28,707 nucleotides of DNA from Lentisphaerota bacterium. GTDB taxonomy: Bacteria > Verrucomicrobiota > Lentisphaeria > Oligosphaerales > PUNB01. How positions within the stretch are numbered: the first letter of the stretch is position 1; every line of letters starts with the position of its first letter. The DNA lies in assembly GCA_003552565.1 (NCBI GenBank), contig PUNB01000262.1:1-28707 (forward strand), in the 5' to 3' direction. The notes under the pieces were generated by a model. The model was not told the origin of the DNA. It ran no database searches and saw only the letters and a list, made by a program, of their open reading frames with translations. Below are positions 3,897 through 28,707 of this stretch, in pieces. Made by a program: the position numbers and the translations under genes.

Positions 3897-4082
3897 GGGC
3901 GTTTTTCTAGAGGTTATGCGGAAAGGTTGATGTTCCGATTTGTGTTGGTTTAACCATTGTCTAGAACCTTGTCTCGCACCTTGTCGGGAACAAAAAACTG
4001 AATCGAAAAAAGTGCGCGACAAAGTGTTGTAACACCCGATTCTCTCTCGGGGTGCCCGGCGCGTCGCGCCACGAACCGGCGC

Positions 4083-7852: not shown

Positions 7853-7895
7853 TTTTCGTTTTCTCCTTAGTTAGACCTCGTTCGGAAAGTGTTTT

Positions 7896-8063
7896 ATGCC
7901 CCCGCCGGGCTTGTCCCGGCGGAGCAGTAGATTGGTTTTCAGAAATTTGCAGACACCCCCCTCATTTCCGCGGCATGACGGCGAGCCGACATGCCGCGGA
8001 AAAAAAAGCTTGAACATTCTTTTATTTGCAATCTTTCGCTCCGCCGGGACAAGCCCGGCGGGG
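7896..8063. repeat. triad of GC-rich hairpins in the ribH / PLD-gene divergent intergenic region
   Basis: 'CCGCCGGGCTTGTCCCGGCGG' at 7902-7922 and its inverted partner 'CCGCCGGGACAAGCCCGGCGG' at 8041-8061 flank a central perfect hairpin 'CCGCGGCATG-N12-CATGCCGCGG' (7969-8000) followed by A8. Confidence 0.6.
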
Positions 8064-8176
8064 GCGTATGAACTTTAAGCCTCCGGAGATACCTTTTCGC
8101 ATACCCTCTAGCTATGATTACCCTAGTGCCAGAATTGTGGCGGTTAATATAGCGCGGGAATTAACTTTTTAAACTA

Positions 8177-10984: not shown

Positions 10985-11319
10985 GTTTCGAGTCGGTATG
11001 GAATACAGGTTTCGGGTTTCAGAAAGGCTGTTTTGTACTTTCCTAGTCTCGCACCTTGTCTCGCACTTAGTCTGAAAAATGAGGAATCGACAGAAAACCA
11101 GACAAGGTGCGAGACAAAGTTTTATTTTTTTGTGCGTGTAGAGACTGCAAACACCTTTTCGCAGAGGGTCTAGCTATTAATAAGGTGTCAACTTTTAGTC
11201 AGGACTTGACACACCTGGACACTGAAACCTGAAACCACGAAGCCTCACATAAGTGAGTTTTATAATGAGATATTCGGCCGGCATTCGGACTTGGGAAACT
11301 AAAAAAAAGAAGTTATTTT

Positions 11320-12153: not shown

Positions 12154-12471
12154 ACACCTGACCGGGGCAGACGTGATTCGGCCGGGGCGTAATGTGTCAG
12201 TCATAGGAGCACGAATTTCCCACCTTTCACTGAAGCATTACTCCGAAACTGTCCATGCGCTTGCAATTACACGGATGCCAATTACTATTTCTGTTCCGGG
12301 GTATCTGGCGCCTTGCGCCGGGGGCGGGGCTTATCTGAAGCACAGTTTTGAATATTGAATGGTGAATATTGAACTTGGAATTTTTACCTGAAACCTGACA
12401 CCAGAAACCAAGCTGTTACCCATTCGTTTTGAGCAAGAGTCGCGTTTCATTCCAAACCAGCGGTGTAAAAA

Positions 12472-12678
12472 ATGATCAGCGAGAAGTTGTTATCTATCCT
12501 CGGGTGTCCGGCTTGTGAGCAGCGCCCCGCTCTTACACCGGTAAAAAAAGACGAGGGAGAATATCTGGCCTGCGAACAGTGCGGCCTGCTTTACCCGATT
12601 CGGGATGACATTCCGATTATGCTGGTTGATCAGGCGCTCCGTCCTTCCAAGGCGGCGGAGAGTTCCAAGCCTGAATAA
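12472..12678 (+). CDS. Trm112-like (DUF343/YcaR) small zinc-finger protein
   Basis: 'LLSILGCPACEQ...LACEQCGLLYPIRDDIPIMLVDQA' is the canonical Trm112p/YcaR motif. Confidence 0.75.
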   Translation: MISEKLLSILGCPACEQRPALTPVKKDEGEYLACEQCGLLYPIRDDIPIMLVDQALRPSKAAESSKPE

Positions 12679-12917
12679 TTCACGAGCCAAGATTACCGTC
12701 TGGCCACTTGCAGACTAAATAGAAAAAAAATAACATAACATGACAAAAATAAAACCACTGCGCGGACGGATTGTTCCGTCCGAATAAAATTCAAACCTTG
12801 TCCAGAACCTGAATCTATTTGGACTTTGGTTCAGGAGAAGGTTAGTTCCGTCATCCTTTGGAACGACTGTGTAATTGTTTCTAAACCGAAAACCCAAAAA
12901 CGCCAAGGAGCATAAAT

Positions 12918-13274
12918 ATGAGCACTGGTTATCATGAAGCAGGTTTAAGTCAGAAAACTCAGAATATCCATCGGGCCATCGCCAGTTTGCAGGAAGAACT
13001 GGAAGCGGTGGACTGGTATAATCAGCGCGCTGATGTGACTGAGGACGCGGAATTGAAAGCGGTTCTTGAACACAACCGCAATGAAGAGATTGAGCACGCC
13101 GGTATGCTGCTTGAATATCTCCGTCGCAATATGAGCGAGTTTGACGAGCAATTGTCGACCTACCTGTTTTCCACTCTGCCGATCACCCAGATCGAAGAGG
13201 CTGAAGAGGGCGGGGAAAATGACGCTCCCGGCGACGTCTCCAGCTCTGGCTTGGGCATTGGGAAAATGGATTAG
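12918..13274 (+). CDS. encapsulated ferritin-like protein (EncFtn/Flp) cargo with C-terminal encapsulin targeting peptide
   Basis: 'EELEAVDWYNQRADVTEDAELKAVLEHNRNEEIEHAGMLLEYLRR' is the EncFtn di-iron motif region. The Gly-rich linker ends in 'SSGLGIGKMD', resembling the family-1 cargo-loading peptide (GSLGIGxL). Confidence 0.8.
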   Translation: MSTGYHEAGLSQKTQNIHRAIASLQEELEAVDWYNQRADVTEDAELKAVLEHNRNEEIEHAGMLLEYLRRNMSEFDEQLSTYLFSTLPITQIEEAEEGGENDAPGDVSSSGLGIGKMD

Positions 13275-13346
13275 CTCAGTTCTTGATGCCTTGGTAGTGA
13301 ACTGATTTATTGCTTTGTATTATCAAAAAACATAAGGAAATGAAAG

Positions 13347-14153
13347 ATGGATATTTTAAAAAGATCACTGGCTCCAATCACTGACAGCGCCTGGAATGAG
13401 ATTGATCAGGAAGCGGCGCGCGTTTTGAGAGGCAATCTGGCTTTTCGCGGCCTGGTGGACTTCGTCGGACCCGAGGGCTGGGAGAAGGCGGCGGTCAATC
13501 TGGGCACCATGAAAGAAGGCGGCAAGCAGCTGGTGAAAGGAGTTAACTGGGGATTACGTCAGGTTCAGCCTTTGACCGAAATCAGAGTGCCCTTTTCTCT
13601 TGATATATGGGAGTTGGACAACTTGGAACGCGGCGCCCAGGCACCCGATCTGGACGCGGTCACGCAGGCGGCTCAACAAGGAGCGGTCTTTGAGGAAACG
13701 GCTGTTCTCAACGGTTTTTCCGAGGCTCAGATCACCGGCATCGGTCAGGCGGCCGGCAAACCGATCGGCATGTCCAAGAACCCAGCCGATTGCCTCGCCG
13801 CTTTTGAAGAAGGCATCGTGGCCTTGCAGAAGCAGGGAATCAACGGTCCATACCAGCTGGTTCTGGGAACGGAAGCCTATCAAATGATAATGGCCGGTGA
13901 TGATAAAGGTTATCCTCTGCACAAGCGCGTACAGGAATTGACCGGAACCGACATCAAATGGAGTCCGGCAGTGATGCAGGCGGGGATTATTTTAAGCTGT
14001 CGCGGCGGTGATTATGTCTTCACCTGCGGCCAGGATTTTTCCATCGGCTATCATTCACATTCAACCAAGGCGGTTAATCTGTTTTTAACCGAGTCTTTTA
14101 CTTTCCAGGTTCTGGAACCCGCGGCGGCGGTCAGTATATCCTGGAAAAAGTGA
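13347..14153 (+). CDS. family-1 encapsulin nanocompartment shell protein (linocin M18-like, HK97 fold)
   Basis: Collinear similarity to the T. maritima encapsulin: 'MDILKRSLAPITDSAWNEID', 'WGLRQVQPLTEIRVPFSLDIWELDNLERG', 'GPYQLVLGTEAYQ', 'GYPLHKRVQELTG', 'GQDFSIGYHSHSTKAVNLFLTESFTFQVLEP'. Confidence 0.9.
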   Translation: MDILKRSLAPITDSAWNEIDQEAARVLRGNLAFRGLVDFVGPEGWEKAAVNLGTMKEGGKQLVKGVNWGLRQVQPLTEIRVPFSLDIWELDNLERGAQAPDLDAVTQAAQQGAVFEETAVLNGFSEAQITGIGQAAGKPIGMSKNPADCLAAFEEGIVALQKQGINGPYQLVLGTEAYQMIMAGDDKGYPLHKRVQELTGTDIKWSPAVMQAGIILSCRGGDYVFTCGQDFSIGYHSHSTKAVNLFLTESFTFQVLEPAAAVSISWKK

Positions 14154-14725: not shown

Positions 14726-14976
14726 GAATATATATCCTTGTCTCGAACCTTGTCTCGAACCTTGTCCCGAACCTTGTCCCTAATCCGCCTCAGGCGGATT
14801 AGGGACAAGGTTTTTTATGCCGCACCAGTCTCTCGCTCGGAGTATCAGGCTCCTCGAGCCAGCGGTCAGGCTTATGTGAAACTCAGCCTTGTCTACCTCA
14901 GGCGGATCTGGTTTTCTTTCGATTCCTCATTTTTCGGACTAAGTGCGAGACAAGGTGCGAGACAAGGTGAGCACAA
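14726..14976. repeat. composite structured element: 4x tandem 12-mer 'CCTTGTCTCGAA', a 12-bp-stem palindrome with T6, and inverted 12-mer copies at the far end
   Basis: 14736-14783 holds the tandem 12-mers. 14779-14815 is 'CCCTAATCCGCC-TCAG-GGCGGATTAGGG ACAAGGTTTTTT'. 14946-14970 is 'GTGCGAGACAAGGTGCGAGACAAGG', the inverse of the 12-mer. A 'GGCTTATGTGAAACTCAGCC' box lies at 14859-14878. Confidence 0.7.
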
Positions 14977-15007
14977 AATCAGGTCTCAACCCCTTTCCGG
15001 ACGGGCT

Positions 15008-15940
15008 CTATCTAAGGCTGTTTGCAGTGTTTTTCGAGGCGCGCGCCGCACCATGCCAGGTCCACACATTGCCGCTGAATTCTTTTTCAGCTTTTAACGC
15101 CGCGGCGGCTGCTTGTTCTTCAGAGTTGAACACGGCGAAAACCGTCGGGCCGCTGCCGGAAACATGGCTTGCCATGGAATCTTGATTCCGGAGGAAGTCA
15201 AAAAACATTTGTAATAGAGGAATTTTCTGCAAAAGCGGTTCGTTAAAACGAGTTCGAGTATTTCGGGCAATTTTTTCTAGATCCCCCTCCCACATTGCTT
15301 TTAATAAAGGTATGGAGGAGATTTCCATTAGGTCATCGAAACTTCCGCGGATTCGCTGATAAGCCCAGCCGGCGGAAACGGGGAGGCCGCCGGGGTTTAA
15401 CAATAGAATCGGAATAGAGCAGTTAAGTGTAACCGGATCCAGTTTATCGCCTATGCCGCGGGCTAAGGAGGGAAGGGGATTCAGGAAGAAGGGCGCGTCA
15501 GCTCCGAGTTGGCGGGCCATTTGATGGCGTCGGCTGTCACCAAGCGTGATTCCGGTTATCTCCTCCAGAGCATTCAGCACGGCGGCGCCGTCTGAACTGC
15601 CGCCGCCCAGGCCTGCGGCCACGGGTATTTTTTTATCGATGTGTATATGCCAGGCCGGGGGGATTTTTGCTTCTTCCGCAAAAGCAATTGCGGCCTGGTA
15701 AACCAAATTGGAGCTGTCAACTGGAACCTGCGGGTGGCTACAGGTGATTTCAGGCTCCCTGCCGTGGATAGGGGTTACAGTTATAGTATCACATAGATCC
15801 GGCAGCGGCAGAAAAACAGACTCCAACTCATGCATCCCGTCGGCTCTTTTGCCGCGAATGGCCAGGAACAGATTTATCTTCGCCGGTGTCTTAACGATTA
15901 CACTACGGATGGCAGCTGCTGAATGTTCTGTTTTTAACAT
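15008..15940 (-). CDS. ispE: 4-diphosphocytidyl-2-C-methyl-D-erythritol kinase
   Basis: 'PAKINLFLAIRGKRADGMHELESVF' and 'KIPVAAGLGGGSSDGAAVL' are GHMP-kinase/IspE motifs. The stop overlaps motif A (14990-15014). Confidence 0.85.
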   Translation of the reverse strand: MLKTEHSAAAIRSVIVKTPAKINLFLAIRGKRADGMHELESVFLPLPDLCDTITVTPIHGREPEITCSHPQVPVDSSNLVYQAAIAFAEEAKIPPAWHIHIDKKIPVAAGLGGGSSDGAAVLNALEEITGITLGDSRRHQMARQLGADAPFFLNPLPSLARGIGDKLDPVTLNCSIPILLLNPGGLPVSAGWAYQRIRGSFDDLMEISSIPLLKAMWEGDLEKIARNTRTRFNEPLLQKIPLLQMFFDFLRNQDSMASHVSGSGPTVFAVFNSEEQAAAAALKAEKEFSGNVWTWHGAARASKNTANSLR

Positions 15941-16076
15941 GTGGAGTTTAACAAGTCGTGTTGAATGAACAAAGGTTAAAGATATATTAGAGAATGATTG
16001 CTCTGTCGTTTTTTGTCTGTTTCCGGTGGTAATCTAATTCAAATGATAACAAATAAAAATTGACGAGGTGAATACA

Positions 16077-16724
16077 ATGAATAAATTGCGTTTTAGTGGT
16101 TTGATGATGATTTGTGCGGCCGCTTTGATTTTGAACGGCTGCGCTACAGGCGAAAGTGTGGTTTCTCCTGGATTCAGGGAAGCCAGTCCCGACCGAGTCG
16201 CGGTGGTTGATATCACCGGCGATATCAGAGGAGACGCGGTTAAGAACCAGGTGGAAGATTATCTTTCCATGGAGATGATGAAGAAAGGCTATCGGGTGGT
16301 TGAGCGCAGTCGCGTCCAGCAAGTTATGGAAGAACAGGATTTTCAGGTTTCCGACCGCACTTCCGCTCGGGAGGCGGCCAGGATCGGGGAAATCATGAAT
16401 ATTCCCGCCGTTATGATGCTTGATGTTAAAATTGACGGTGAAAAGCTCAGCCTCACCGGGCGGATGGTGGATTCGCAAACCGGAGAAGTTTTATGGATCG
16501 GCAGCGGCCGCGGCGGCACCGGTCGAACAATGGCCACTTTGGGCGGAGCCGTTACCGGCGGCTTGCTTGGAACTCAGGTTGGCGCTGGACGCGGTCGAGA
16601 CATTGCCACCGTTACCGGCGGCGTTTTGGGAGGAGCCGCCGGCTATACTCTGGCACCGCAGGCACAGCGGATGGTGCAGAGGGCGATTGGACAAATGGTC
16701 GATGAATTGCCGGACGCGCGTTGA
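16077..16724 (+). CDS. lipoprotein with C-terminal glycine-zipper domain (LpoB/CsgG-like N-domain?)
   Basis: Signal peptide + lipobox 'LILNGC'. N-domain 'VAVVDITGDIRGDAV..VEDYLSMEMMKKGYRVVERSRV'. C-terminal 'GAVTGGLLGTQVGAGRG..VTGGVLGGAAGY' glycine zipper. GAGGTG RBS lies 6 nt before the ATG at 16077 (a GTG at 16068 is also possible). Confidence 0.6.
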   Translation: MNKLRFSGLMMICAAALILNGCATGESVVSPGFREASPDRVAVVDITGDIRGDAVKNQVEDYLSMEMMKKGYRVVERSRVQQVMEEQDFQVSDRTSAREAARIGEIMNIPAVMMLDVKIDGEKLSLTGRMVDSQTGEVLWIGSGRGGTGRTMATLGGAVTGGLLGTQVGAGRGRDIATVTGGVLGGAAGYTLAPQAQRMVQRAIGQMVDELPDAR

Positions 16725-16874
16725 CGCTTGTGTGAGACTTTGTGGTTTCAGGTTTCAGTGTTCAGATGTCAGACAACAGAAACCATGCGAGACAAACTGT
16801 AGTAACGCATCCCATGGGACGCTTGTGAGTTTTTTTTAATTAATTTGCCTGTAACATGAAAGGATAAATGCTTA

Positions 16875-17519
16875 ATGTATGTCGGACGAATTGTAGCCGT
16901 CGGCCTGTCCCAGCAAGGGGCTTCGGCGGCGATGTATCGAGTCTCTTCCCGTTCCTTCCCCAATCGCCACGCAGTGATTCTCAATGAAACCGCGGCCATT
17001 GTCCCGAAACCGGGACACGAGGGGGATATTCAGAAAAACCCATATATCGCCTACAACTGTCTGCGTTTAACTGGCGAGTATGCTGTTGCCACCAACGGCA
17101 CTCAAACCGACCCTGTCTGTGAGAAACTTTCCGCCGGCCTGCCTCCGCGCGACGCTCTGGCTTCAGTGCTGCTGACCCTGGACTATGAAAAAGATGCCTA
17201 CAACACTCCCCGCATTGCCGCCGTGATTAATCGGCGCGGTGACTCCGCTTACCTAGGCATCGCGCGTCATGACGCGCTGCTGGTGCGGAAAATGGATCTC
17301 CAGCCCGGGAGGCTCTTTTATATCTGCACTTACGAGCATAACTTTCCGGATTCCAGTTTCGCGGATAATGATTTTGCCGTCAGTGATCCCCTTTCAGCTT
17401 GTGATTATTTGCTGGGGCAGGGGGTGTTCGCTGAATTTGAACGGCCGGTGACCGCGGCCTGCGCGGTGGCCGGAACCGACGGATTTTCTTTGGCGGCGCG
17501 GGAAGCGGTTTCGGGGTGA
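16875..17519 (+). CDS. purO: IMP cyclohydrolase, archaeal PurO type
   Basis: 'MYVGRIVAVG...YRVSSRSFPNR...NPYIAYNC...DALASVLLTLDYEKDAYNTPRIAAVIN...YLGIARHDALLVRK' is collinear with M. jannaschii PurO. Confidence 0.8.
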   Translation: MYVGRIVAVGLSQQGASAAMYRVSSRSFPNRHAVILNETAAIVPKPGHEGDIQKNPYIAYNCLRLTGEYAVATNGTQTDPVCEKLSAGLPPRDALASVLLTLDYEKDAYNTPRIAAVINRRGDSAYLGIARHDALLVRKMDLQPGRLFYICTYEHNFPDSSFADNDFAVSDPLSACDYLLGQGVFAEFERPVTAACAVAGTDGFSLAAREAVSG

Positions 17520-17532
17520 GAAAATATTGAGT

Positions 17533-17600
17533 TACCGCGCGGACGTATTATTACGTCCGGTATATTGGGCTACCGCGCGGACGTATTATTACGTCCGGTA
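17533..17600. repeat. two tandem 30-bp palindromic units 'TACCGCGCGGACGTATTATTACGTCCGGTA' separated by 8 bp
   Basis: Unit 1 at 17533-17562 and unit 2 at 17571-17600 are identical. Each contains the perfect palindrome CGGACGTA-ATTAT-TACGTCCG. They lie between the purO stop and the hisD start. Confidence 0.85.
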
Positions 17601-17691
17601 GACTTTACATTTGTCGTACTCAGGCACGTGCAATCTTACCGCGCAGCCAGCTGAAATTGGAAACAACTATCTTTCACGAAAAAATGAATTC

Positions 17692-18981
17692 ATGCGCACA
17701 TTCAAGCATACTCAATCGGATTTTACGGCGCGGTTGCAGGAACTGATAGACCGTCCGGCAGTCCCTCCGGGAATCGAAGAACGGGTGGCCGAGATTATCG
17801 AAGCTGTGGCTCGAGAAGGCGACGCGGCAATCAGCCGTTATGCCCGTGAAATCGACCAGGTTGAATTGACCTCGGAGAACTTCACTGTTCAACCGCGAGA
17901 GATAAAAAACTCCACCGAAAAGGTTTCAAGCAGTTTACGCCGGGCGATAGAACTGGCAGCCGCCCAGATTAAGCAGCTGGCCCGTCATCGAGTGCCGGTC
18001 GCCTGGCGCCAGTCTCCGCGCCCGGGGGTGGAGCTGGGAGAAACTTTTCATCCTCTTTCCCGCGTCGGCGCTTATGTTCCGGGGGGAACTGCGCCGCTGG
18101 TCTCGACGGTTCTTCATACCGCCGCTTTGGCTTCCGCCGCGGGAGTCGAAGAGATTATCCTGACGACACCGCCGGGACCCGAGGGGAGCGTTGATCCGGC
18201 TATTTTGTTCGCCGCCATGGAGTCCGGGACGGAGCAGGTCATGCGGCTCGGCGGAGTATACGGTGTCGCCGCTCTGGCGCTAGGCACGGAAACAGTTAAA
18301 AATGTGGAGAAAATAGTCGGCCCGGGCAATGCTTACGTGACTGCGGCCAAGCGCCAGCTTTACGGTCGGGTGGCCCTGGATATGGTTGCCGGCCCCTCCG
18401 AAATTATGGTCATTGGCGACGAGCAGGCCGATCCGCGCTGGGCGGCGGCGGATATGTTATCGCAGATTGAGCATGGCTCCGGCCATGAACAAGCGGTGCT
18501 GGCCAGTGATTCGGAAACCTGGCTGCGGCAGGTGGCGGATGAAGTTGAAAAGCAGTGTGCGCAACTGAGCCGTGGAGATTTCATTCGTCAGTGCCTGGAA
18601 CAGGGGGTTTACTTGTTATGTTTCCCCGATCTTCGGGAAGCCGCTGATTTCGCCGGCGCTTACGCTCCCGAGCATTTGGAACTGATGTGTGCCGGCGCTG
18701 ATGAGATGGCCTCTGAAATCAAGGCCGCCGGCGCGATTTTTATCGGGCCCTGGACTCCGGAACCGGTCGGTGATTTTGTCGCCGGTCCCAGTCATGTTCT
18801 GCCCACCGCCGGTGCCGCCCGTTTTTTCAGCGGCCTGACGGTGGAGCAGTTTTTTCGACGTATCAGTGTTGTCAAATATGAGCGGGAGGCCCTGCAAAGG
18901 GAGCTGCCGGCGATAACCGCATTGGCGGAAGCGGAAGGTCTCAGTGCTCATGGTCGCAGCGCCGCTATCCGTTTTGAATAA
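17692..18981 (+). CDS. hisD: histidinol dehydrogenase
   Basis: 'VGAYVPGGTAPLVSTVLHTAALASAAGV', 'IVGPGNAYVTAAKRQLYGRVALDMVAGPSEI' and 'QIEHGSGHEQAVL' are HisD signatures. I chose the start at MRTFKH (ATG 17692). Confidence 0.9.
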   Translation: MRTFKHTQSDFTARLQELIDRPAVPPGIEERVAEIIEAVAREGDAAISRYAREIDQVELTSENFTVQPREIKNSTEKVSSSLRRAIELAAAQIKQLARHRVPVAWRQSPRPGVELGETFHPLSRVGAYVPGGTAPLVSTVLHTAALASAAGVEEIILTTPPGPEGSVDPAILFAAMESGTEQVMRLGGVYGVAALALGTETVKNVEKIVGPGNAYVTAAKRQLYGRVALDMVAGPSEIMVIGDEQADPRWAAADMLSQIEHGSGHEQAVLASDSETWLRQVADEVEKQCAQLSRGDFIRQCLEQGVYLLCFPDLREAADFAGAYAPEHLELMCAGADEMASEIKAAGAIFIGPWTPEPVGDFVAGPSHVLPTAGAARFFSGLTVEQFFRRISVVKYEREALQRELPAITALAEAEGLSAHGRSAAIRFE

Positions 18982-19904: not shown

Positions 19905-20190
19905 CCAGCTTGGTTTTAGATCTCAGGTTTCAGGTGTCAGGACTTGACAAGGCGGATCGTGCAGTGACCGATAAAGATAGTGGTTTAAGCGTAACCAAGT
20001 AAGTGTGAGACGAAGGGTGGGATGAAGAGGAAGCCGAAGTGTTTAGAAGAGAGGCCTGAAGCCCATGACACTTAACCCCCCACTTAATCGTACACTTGAG
20101 CCCACTCTTAGTTGGTTACGCTTAAGCAACCTGCTTGGGTACGAAATTCTGAAACCTGAAACCCGAAACCTGAACTCTGTCACGAACAAT
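19905..20190. repeat. structured intergenic element bounded by inverted motif-C heptamer runs, with an internal imperfect 25-bp inverted repeat
   Basis: Motif C '...CAGCTTGGTTTTAGATCTCAGGTTTCAGGTGTCAGGACTTGACAAGG' at 19905-19951. Its inverted counterpart 'CTGAAACCTGAAACCCGAAACCTGAAC' at 20148-20174. IR arms 19985-20009 vs 20104-20130 (TTAAGCGTAACCAA...). Confidence 0.65.
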
Positions 20191-22517: not shown

Positions 22518-22870
22518 GGTTTCGTATTGTGGCTATAAAAACCTGGTGTCTCATACAAGCCCAGCCGCCGGCGCAAAGCGCCTGATACCCCGGATGGAAA
22601 CAGCGGCTAACGAAGAACCGTGACCCTATCCGTGTGTATCCGTGTTAATCCGTGGTGAAAAAAGGCAGAAAATAAAACCACGGATGGACACAGATTAACA
22701 CTGATATAAAATGGTTCGTTTCTAGTGGGAAAAACGGAGAACAAAACGACCGTGTTTCACATAAGCCTGATCGCCGGCGCGATGCACGCCGAATACCCTG
22801 AGGGTGAGACTGTTGCGGCATAAAAAACCTTGTCTCGAACCTTGTCCAGTTTTTTTTGACTTTTTGTGCC

Positions 22871-27554: not shown

Positions 27555-27779
27555 AGTCCTAGCTCACTCTAAGTTTTTTATGGCTTTTTCTTAAAACAAA
27601 TGTTTATTAATAAAAGATTCTTTTCTGAAATTTCATCGGTAACAGCTTGGTTTCAGGTTTCTGGTGTCAGGGTATTAGTTAAATCCCAAATCTAAAATCA
27701 CAAATCTCATTGATGGAATATGGTTCGGGACAAAGTTGAACCCAGAGACACGCGAAACACCTTTTCGGATACCCTCAGG

Positions 27780-28707
27780 CTAGTATTCCAAGTCAATCGG
27801 CTCTTCGAGTCTTGCCCGGATAGTGAACGTTCTCAGATTAAACACCTGATCCGACACTTCGTATTCATCAAAATCGACCCGATCCTCAACGAAAACAGGC
27901 AATCTTCTCAACCTTGACAAAAGTACCTGTTCCGGACCGCGGCCGTTATCCGGAACCTCTTCAGGCGCCTCAATATCCTCGAGCTCATCGGCCGCCTCTT
28001 CGAGTTCTTCCCGCGCTAACTCTTCAAGCTCTTCATCCCCAACGTCTTGTCCGTCAATTCTAACTCCCGGCGGAAGTGAAAGACTGTGGCCGCGAACTGC
28101 TATGCCGGTGATTCTGCCTCTCGGGCCGCTTTCTTCCAGTTCAATCTCATCAGGATCTCTTTCTTCATCCTCGCGCCGCGGTTCATCGTCACGATCACGC
28201 CTCCTGCTGAAAGGACTGGCGGGAGCGTCGCGCTCGGGCCGGCGTTCCTCTTCTTCCTCTCTCAAATCCTCAAAAACCGGCCTGAATTCAGTGAACCACA
28301 ACCTTCCGGGTATTTCCGCTTCCACGGAATTAACCACCCGCACCCAATCTTCGCGTCTTCTCAGCAGGCGGTTCAATCGCTGGTACTGATCCTCGACATT
28401 GCTGATCTCGCTCTCCACCCCGCTCAATTCGCTCTCTTTCTCTTCCAGCTCTTGGCGCTGTTCCCGGAATTGTTCCACCACCGGCTCATAAACCTGAGCC
28501 ATGTACATATTGCTGAACAAAGAGAAGGTCAACAGCAAAAGTACGCACAAAGCCGCCGCTCCCAGCCATGTCTTCTTCTGCTCAAAAGCCACTAGTCGAC
28601 GTATGCGCCGCGGCAGGAGATTAACCTCAACCGGACAGGCCCCTCGATAACGCAGCGCCAAACCAACCGCCTGACTGAACCCATGGGCCTCGTTTTCCAA
28701 TCTTTCA
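27780..28707 (-). CDS. PilN-like pilus assembly protein, possibly fused to an upstream PilM-like domain. The 5' end is outside the window.
   Basis: The ORF is open to the window end. 'VNLLPRRIRRLVAFEQKKTWLGAAALCVLLLLTF' is a PilN N-terminus (INLLP motif + TM), then a coiled coil. The preceding 'GFSQAVGLALRY' resembles a PilM C-terminus. Long acidic/Arg tail. Confidence 0.55.
   Translation of the reverse strand, partial: ERLENEAHGFSQAVGLALRYRGACPVEVNLLPRRIRRLVAFEQKKTWLGAAALCVLLLLTFSLFSNMYMAQVYEPVVEQFREQRQELEEKESELSGVESEISNVEDQYQRLNRLLRRREDWVRVVNSVEAEIPGRLWFTEFRPVFEDLREEEEERRPERDAPASPFSRRRDRDDEPRREDEERDPDEIELEESGPRGRITGIAVRGHSLSLPPGVRIDGQDVGDEELEELAREELEEAADELEDIEAPEEVPDNGRGPEQVLLSRLRRLPVFVEDRVDFDEYEVSDQVFNLRTFTIRARLEEPIDLEY

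Follow-up and report, generated by a model that had tools for sequence, protein, structure and literature searches.

A tandemly duplicated extragenic hairpin with REP-like features between purO and hisD in a Lentisphaerota-like bacterium

The window analysed here, that is, the whole stretch of DNA under study, is one entire NCBI contig of 28,707 nt. On its + strand, a purO-like gene for an archaeal-type IMP cyclohydrolase precedes hisD, the gene for histidinol dehydrogenase, which is followed on the same strand by a gene for a fumarate hydratase subunit and then by a phosphoglucosamine-mutase-like gene (Table 1). A metabolic link between purO and histidine synthesis is plausible, as the AICAR released by the latter re-enters purine synthesis. 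The start codon of hisD was placed at the ATG at 17692 and not at the TTG at 17611, since the homologues are mostly 429–437 aa long and cover 100% of the resulting 429-aa product. Between the two genes lies a spacer of 172 nt (17520–17691) that accommodates a short repeat array, which starts 4 nt past the purO TGA and leaves 91 nt to the hisD ATG. Measured from the purO stop, the first 30-mer and its outer stem begin at 13 nt and the inner stem at 20 nt. None of the three + strand frames of the array contains a stop codon.

The named HisD homologues are Lentisphaerota/Victivallales MAG proteins with 53–59% identity, and the three closest homologues reach 64–65%. Two of these three (L121 and L122) keep the order purO-hisD-fumA, with purO–hisD spacers of 131 and 53 nt, and the third (L123) keeps hisD-fumA. 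After subtraction of the 77-nt array, the spacer of the window measures 95 nt, which is within the range of the relatives. Because the purO-hisD-fumarase order is common to two relatives, the array probably lies inside an operon, and purO and hisD would be co-transcribed, as inferred from this gene order. The hairpin described below is absent from the spacer 5' of hisD in all three relatives, as well as from the rest of the loci fetched from them.

Table 1. Features of the purO–hisD region and of the second hairpin locus (positions of the window)
Feature	Position	Strand	Basis
trm112-like gene	12472-12678	+	
single related hairpin GCGCGGACGgATTgTTcCGTCCG (shared core including 5' GCG)	12760..12782	+	
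EncFtn, encapsulated ferritin	12918-13274	+	PF22277
encapsulin shell	13347-14153	+	PF04454
purO-like gene, archaeal-type IMP cyclohydrolase	16875..17519	+	Pfam PF07826, E = 8.6e-58
38-bp tandem repeat, 2.0 copies, unit ATATTGrGyTACCGCGCGGACGTATTATTACGTCCGGT	17524..17600	+	Tandem Repeats Finder, direct-repeat family D5, unit-by-unit comparison
unit 1, 30-mer TACCGCGCGGACGTATTATTACGTCCGGTA; inner stem-loop 17540-17559	17533..17562	+	
unit 2, identical 30-mer; inner stem-loop 17578-17597	17571..17600	+	
TTACCGCGC, third copy of the unit's 5' edge (plus one base), out of register with the array	17636..17644	+	
hisD, histidinol dehydrogenase	17692..18981	+	Pfam PF00815, E = 5e-143; homologue lengths

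The 30-mer TACCGCGCGGACGTATTATTACGTCCGGTA occurs exactly twice in the window, both times on the + strand and with 0 mismatches, and it found 0 matches in 100 dinucleotide-preserving shuffles. The copies are separated by the 8-nt linker TATTGGGC. Two exact 30-mers with an 8-nt spacer had been described in the initial annotation, and both statements hold. The same annotation had regarded the repeat as a tandem unit of 30 bp. The tandem identity stands, but the unit is larger, since Tandem Repeats Finder reports a period of 38 bp (94% matches, score 140), with the linker as part of the repeat: ATATTGAGT, the 9 nt 5' of unit 1, equals the corresponding linker sequence ATATTGGGC at 7 of 9 positions. 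The two 38-mers differ at 2 positions, both of them in the linker, and the 30-nt palindromic part is 100% identical. The probability that both mismatches fall into the linker by chance is about 0.04–0.05. This distribution hints at a constraint on the palindromic part, which would be compatible with a protein-binding site and with a structure alike.

The 5' edge of the unit occurs a third time, as TTACCGCGC, 36 nt 3' of the array; the chance expectation for this is about 5% by a rough estimate. TACCGCGC is present in three copies in the window, all of them in the purO–hisD spacer. The isolated copy at 17636–17644 could be the remnant of an older unit or a chance occurrence. The occurrences of TTACCGCGC at 17532 and 17636 could have been the 9-bp target duplication of an insertion, but this idea was rejected, as the intervening segment has no terminal inverted repeats and a 9-mer match of this kind has a chance of some 5%.

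Each unit comprises a perfect 8-bp stem, CGGACGTA/TACGTCCG, and a 4-nt loop. The loop had initially been read as ATTAT; between the two arms there is TTAT. Folded as sense RNA, the stem grows to 10 bp with one bulged G and reaches −14.1 kcal/mol, compared with −11.6 kcal/mol for the antisense RNA and −8.9 kcal/mol for single-stranded DNA. Both units carry an asymmetric 5' GCGC on the same strand and are thus direct repeats. For the pattern CGGACG-N6-10-CGTCCG, 0.03 matches are expected in the window and three are present. The contig is generally rich in perfect hairpins with stems of 8 bp or more (11, compared with 2.75 in shuffles), and 9 of the 11 are intergenic. In the Rfam search, only a tRNA exceeded the gathering threshold in the window. 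At E values up to 10, the region 17300–17800 gave two chance-level matches, both outside the array, so that a known Rfam family was dismissed for lack of a match at the array.

The third hairpin of this kind is found upstream of the operon for EncFtn and the encapsulin shell (12918–14153). It lies in the intergenic region 12679–12917, 81 nt past the stop codon of the trm112-like gene and 135 nt before the EncFtn ATG, and has the same orientation relative to the flanking + strand genes as the hisD copies. The hairpin proper, CGGACGGATTGTTCCGTCCG, occupies 12763–12782. Its existence had been noted before, at 12761–12780, which is two bases off. As RNA, it folds with −15.3 kcal/mol, and its tail is A-rich. 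Compared with the hisD copies, 20 of the 23 positions of the shared core are equal. Of the three differences, one is an A to G change in the loop, and the other two are compensatory, replacing a T-A pair of the stem by a G-C pair. The same single hairpin was recovered unchanged in an independent assembly, on the Logan contig L124 (run SRR490150), which is 99.96% identical to the window over 2399 nt. A double change that preserves base pairing is of the kind expected from a folded single strand, either selected or copied as such, and is unexpected for the half-sites of one protein. Although this is a single event, the covariation is suggestive of a fold rather than a protein site, and it suggests that the fold may have been maintained or actively propagated. 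A covariance model built from the three hairpin copies was run against the window and the loci fetched from the relatives, and found no additional members.

The same organism, with about 99.96% identity, is represented both in run SRR490150 and in the ENA assembly ERZ27265998. A contig of the latter (L001) covers positions 15346–17600 of the window with one mismatch in 2255 nt (99.96%). Past unit 2, where the window reads GACTTTACA, the contig enters a third unit with TATTGGGC-TACCGCGCGGACGTAT and then ends. This amounts to at least 2.7 units, compared with 2.0 in the window. Either at least three units exist in the population from which this contig was assembled, or the assembler mis-resolved the repeat; both could account for an extra unit at a contig end. 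Under either reading, at least two units are present in two separate assemblies. It is likely, judging from this pair of near-identical sequences, that the copy number of the array varies.

A scan of genome contigs with the pattern GCGCGGACGNANNNNTNCGTCCG returned at least 116 stretches; among the matches listed, all 116 that were fetched are unrelated single matches or self-palindromes, and none of the matches listed is on a contig of the source genome. The matches listed lie mostly in G+C-rich genomes, for which the pattern is too loose, and the two PVC-group loci among them (L042 and L111) are both inside long ORFs. A tighter pattern had three matches in JGI metagenome contigs, all unrelated, and a pattern scan of viral contigs gave none. 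The 76-aa translation of a hypothetical long array, compared with 5.8 billion proteins, gave no indication of longer arrays annotated as spurious ORFs, and proteins encoded close to the ends of the window had no exact match in protein look-ups.

Repetitive extragenic palindromes (REPs) are defined as extragenic, palindromic and short (about 14–40 nt) sequences that share a consensus and occur in many copies per genome (PMC12306157). The first four of these five properties apply to the element described here, as judged within the 28.7-kb contig. All three copies are intergenic (17520–17691 and 12679–12917). They form a stem-loop with a perfect 8-bp stem and a 4-nt loop. Their length is 20 nt for the stem-loop, 23 nt for the shared core and 30 nt for the extended unit. 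The consensus of 20 common positions out of 23 is shared between two independent loci. As for the fifth property, the contig has three copies at two loci, whereas REPs number hundreds per genome. The likeness to the REPs of enterobacteria and pseudomonads (PMC12306157, PMC3116915) includes the short length of 20–30 nt, the extragenic location, the stem-loop with a recurring consensus, and the position just past a stop codon between co-directional genes. Some REPs of P. fluorescens SBW25 are also arranged in tandem arrays that include flanking sequence (PMC3116915), much as the hairpin and its linker were duplicated together here. On the other hand, no described REP consensus was recognised in the sequence, and the host belongs to a different phylum. 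REPINs consist of two inverted REPs that form a larger hairpin (PMC3116915, PMC3337134). The units described here are direct and not inverted, so that a REPIN or BIME was rejected. In the REPIN/RAYT system, the genome contains a gene for a RAYT, a Y1 transposase, often flanked by repeats (PMC3116915, PMC3337134); Pfam revealed no RAYT or Y1_Tnp domain in the 28 ORFs of the window that were scanned.

A second resemblance is to the mycobacterial interspersed repetitive units (MIRU-VNTR). These are direct tandem repeats of some tens of bases that reside between the cistrons of operons, all with the same orientation to transcription, and differ in copy number between close genomes, which would parallel the extra unit at the end of contig L001. 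MIRUs are, however, 46–101 bp long, are no simple hairpins, and often contain stop and start codons that overlap for translational coupling, whereas the unit described here is a 38-bp hairpin repeat without such overlapping coupling signals.

Taken together, these properties slightly favour the interpretation of the element as a REP-like, extragenic stem-loop that is specific to the lineage, that was duplicated in tandem along with its linker and that acts, if it is active at all, as an RNA hairpin (estimated probability about 0.55). Its core would be GCG-CGGACGNA-TTRT-TNCGTCCG. The head-to-tail duplication, including the 8-nt linker, would most likely have occurred by replication slippage, and the outcome would be a small array of 38-bp units, probably variable in copy number and MIRU/VNTR-like. 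The array is presumed to be transcribed on the purO(-hisD) message, on which each unit is predicted to fold with about −14 kcal/mol. The hairpins may then block 3'-exonucleases, stabilise the upstream purO segment, and might partly uncouple the expression of purO from that of hisD. An influence on translation is also conceivable. In E. coli, ribosomes terminating at a stop codon are disturbed by REPs that lie no more than 15 nt away (cited in PMC12306157). As the distance from the purO stop is 13 nt for the outer stem and 20 nt for the inner one, such interference would be possible but borderline.

The initial annotation had offered two explanations, a REP-type element as the alternative and, in first place, a tandem operator at which each 20–30-bp palindrome binds a dimeric transcription factor, so that two dimers repress or activate a hisD promoter in or just 3' of the array. 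The former is the better fit, and the latter is given little probability here. Like known tandem palindromic operators of dimeric repressors, the array consists of two adjacent perfect palindromes upstream of a biosynthetic gene, 91–159 nt before the hisD ATG, and the identity of the palindromic part, with both mismatches left to the linker, would fit a binding site. The spacing does not fit as well. The palindromes had been described as in phase, but a period of 38 bp corresponds to 3.62 helical turns, which sets their centres about 223 degrees apart and thus out of phase. The only copy of the hairpin elsewhere in the window precedes EncFtn and encapsulin and not a his, amino-acid or otherwise functionally related gene, and in this paralogue at an unrelated operon both half-sites have changed symmetrically and in a compensatory manner. 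Near-identical sequences appear to differ in their number of units, and the element is missing 5' of hisD in L121, L122 and L123, the first two of which have the purO-hisD order. Moreover, the array abuts the purO stop in an apparently operon-internal spacer. In the Pfam scan of 28 ORFs of the window, no domain of a DNA-binding regulator was identified. A search for sigma-70-like promoters in 16700–17800 found none, which is weak evidence against an operator, as the consensus may not be that of this phylum. A Bacteroidetes-type promoter was also considered, and TACATTTG at 17606 does fit the −7 box TAnnTTTG, but the window has no excess of such matches (13 against 12.4 expected). A histidine-specific operator is therefore not supported, and, if the REP-like reading holds, an annotation of the array as a his operator should be avoided. 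The control of hisD by a classical leader peptide can be dismissed as well. In agreement with what had been noted at the outset, each + strand reading frame of the spacer contains at most one His codon and none has a His run, so that a his leader-peptide attenuator was rejected. A CRISPR array was likewise discarded: the array has two units, whose spacer of 8 nt is repeated as well, and no cas domains were detected by Pfam in the 28 window ORFs scanned.

Two G+C-rich stems directly past a stop codon are also reminiscent of intrinsic (rho-independent) terminators. Tandem hairpins without a U-tract might stop or pause RNA polymerase, possibly with the help of a protein factor, and thereby insulate purO from hisD or tune read-through, and a variable number of hairpins would make this read-through graded. 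The tail 3' of unit 2 is moderately T-rich (GACTTTACATTTGT). Nevertheless, such a terminator or attenuator is improbable. The hairpin tails GTATATTGGGCT and GTAGACTTTACA contain no T/U run, the hairpin at 12763 has an A-rich tail, and a terminator scan detected no terminator-like site at the array, which bears out the earlier remark that a T-tract terminator is lacking. Canonical terminators with a hairpin and a T-run do exist elsewhere in the window, at 376–413 and 14770–14816. The spacers of the relatives, which are as short as 53 nt, further suggest that purO and hisD are normally co-transcribed. A somewhat less remote, though still unlikely, explanation is that the array has no role in expression at all and is a by-product of the recent slippage duplication of a stable hairpin, neutral or slightly deleterious and kept by drift. 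The near-identical units speak for a young duplication, the copy number is apparently unstable, the element is absent in the relatives, and the genome tolerates many other short tandem repeats in its spacers. It is harder to reconcile with this explanation that compensatory substitution has kept the stem of the paralogue at 12760–12782, which an independent assembly shows in the same form. A hairpin of −14 kcal/mol whose outer stem starts 13 nt past a stop codon would also be unlikely to escape ribosomes and RNases, by analogy with the E. coli REPs (PMC12306157). At the other extreme, the array might be a copy-variable regulator, in which gain or loss of units by slippage tunes the stability of the purO–hisD message or the read-through from one gene into the other, in the manner of a phase-variable attenuator of a housekeeping operon, or the site of a hitherto undescribed RAYT-like protein system of Lentisphaerota that recognises hairpins in single-stranded DNA or RNA. 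The idea is highly speculative; two of the REP papers cited here contained no description of a REP/RAYT system in Lentisphaerota.

If the REP-like reading holds, the array represents one more lineage-specific extragenic hairpin repeat from a poorly sampled bacterium of the PVC group, with little consequence beyond annotation. In practical terms, it could serve for strain typing of this uncultured organism, as a candidate VNTR locus, and arrays of this kind are places where short-read assemblies break or mis-count.

The spacers of the contig are unusually crowded with other short dispersed and tandem repeats, so that short repeats of this kind appear typical of the genome. The 12-nt unit CCTTGTCTCGAA forms tandems of 2–4 copies in five intergenic regions (3952–3985, 11042–11073, 14736–14778, 14943–14969, where it is inverted, and 22826–22851). 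These arrays often flank terminator-like hairpins, such as the one at 14770–14816, and the Logan contig L124 ends within the array at 14736, as expected for a multi-copy repeat. Heptamer arrays of GGTTTCA/CTGAAAC with 2–4 copies occupy six spacers (11222–11236, 12386–12409, 16744–16758, 19912–19941, 20149–20174 and 27649–27671), and the Logan contigs L124 and L125 begin or end in such arrays, at window positions 12367 and 16760. Inverted GGTTTCA arrays are also located on both sides of a long imperfect hairpin of about 145 nt (19983–20128) in the 412-nt spacer between the fumarase gene and glmM. With −57.4 kcal/mol (z = −4.6) and no Rfam match, this hairpin looks like a MITE or a structured RNA.

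Close to one end of the window, a 149-nt inverted repeat (483–631 and 2629–2777; 90% complementary), which consists partly of 13-nt GATTAAGGCGAAA units, brackets an MFS transporter gene and a 164-aa ORF (762–2565) in a cassette-like arrangement. A motif of about 25 nt, CCCCTTTCCGGAyGssCTCTAGCT(A) or its variant CCTTTTCGCA...CTAGCTAT, recurs at 322–348 (on the − strand), 428–458, 2790–2816, 8090–8119, 11155–11181, 14989–15015 and 27760–27787. Some copies precede + strand genes by about 60–140 nt, and others, in the opposite orientation, directly adjoin the 3' end of a gene; the motif may be a promoter or a repeat element. Finally, the spacer between the divergent ribH and PLD-like genes contains a 40-nt inverted repeat (7895–7934 and 8029–8068; 90%) around a strong hairpin that is accompanied by an A-run (about 7966–8006).
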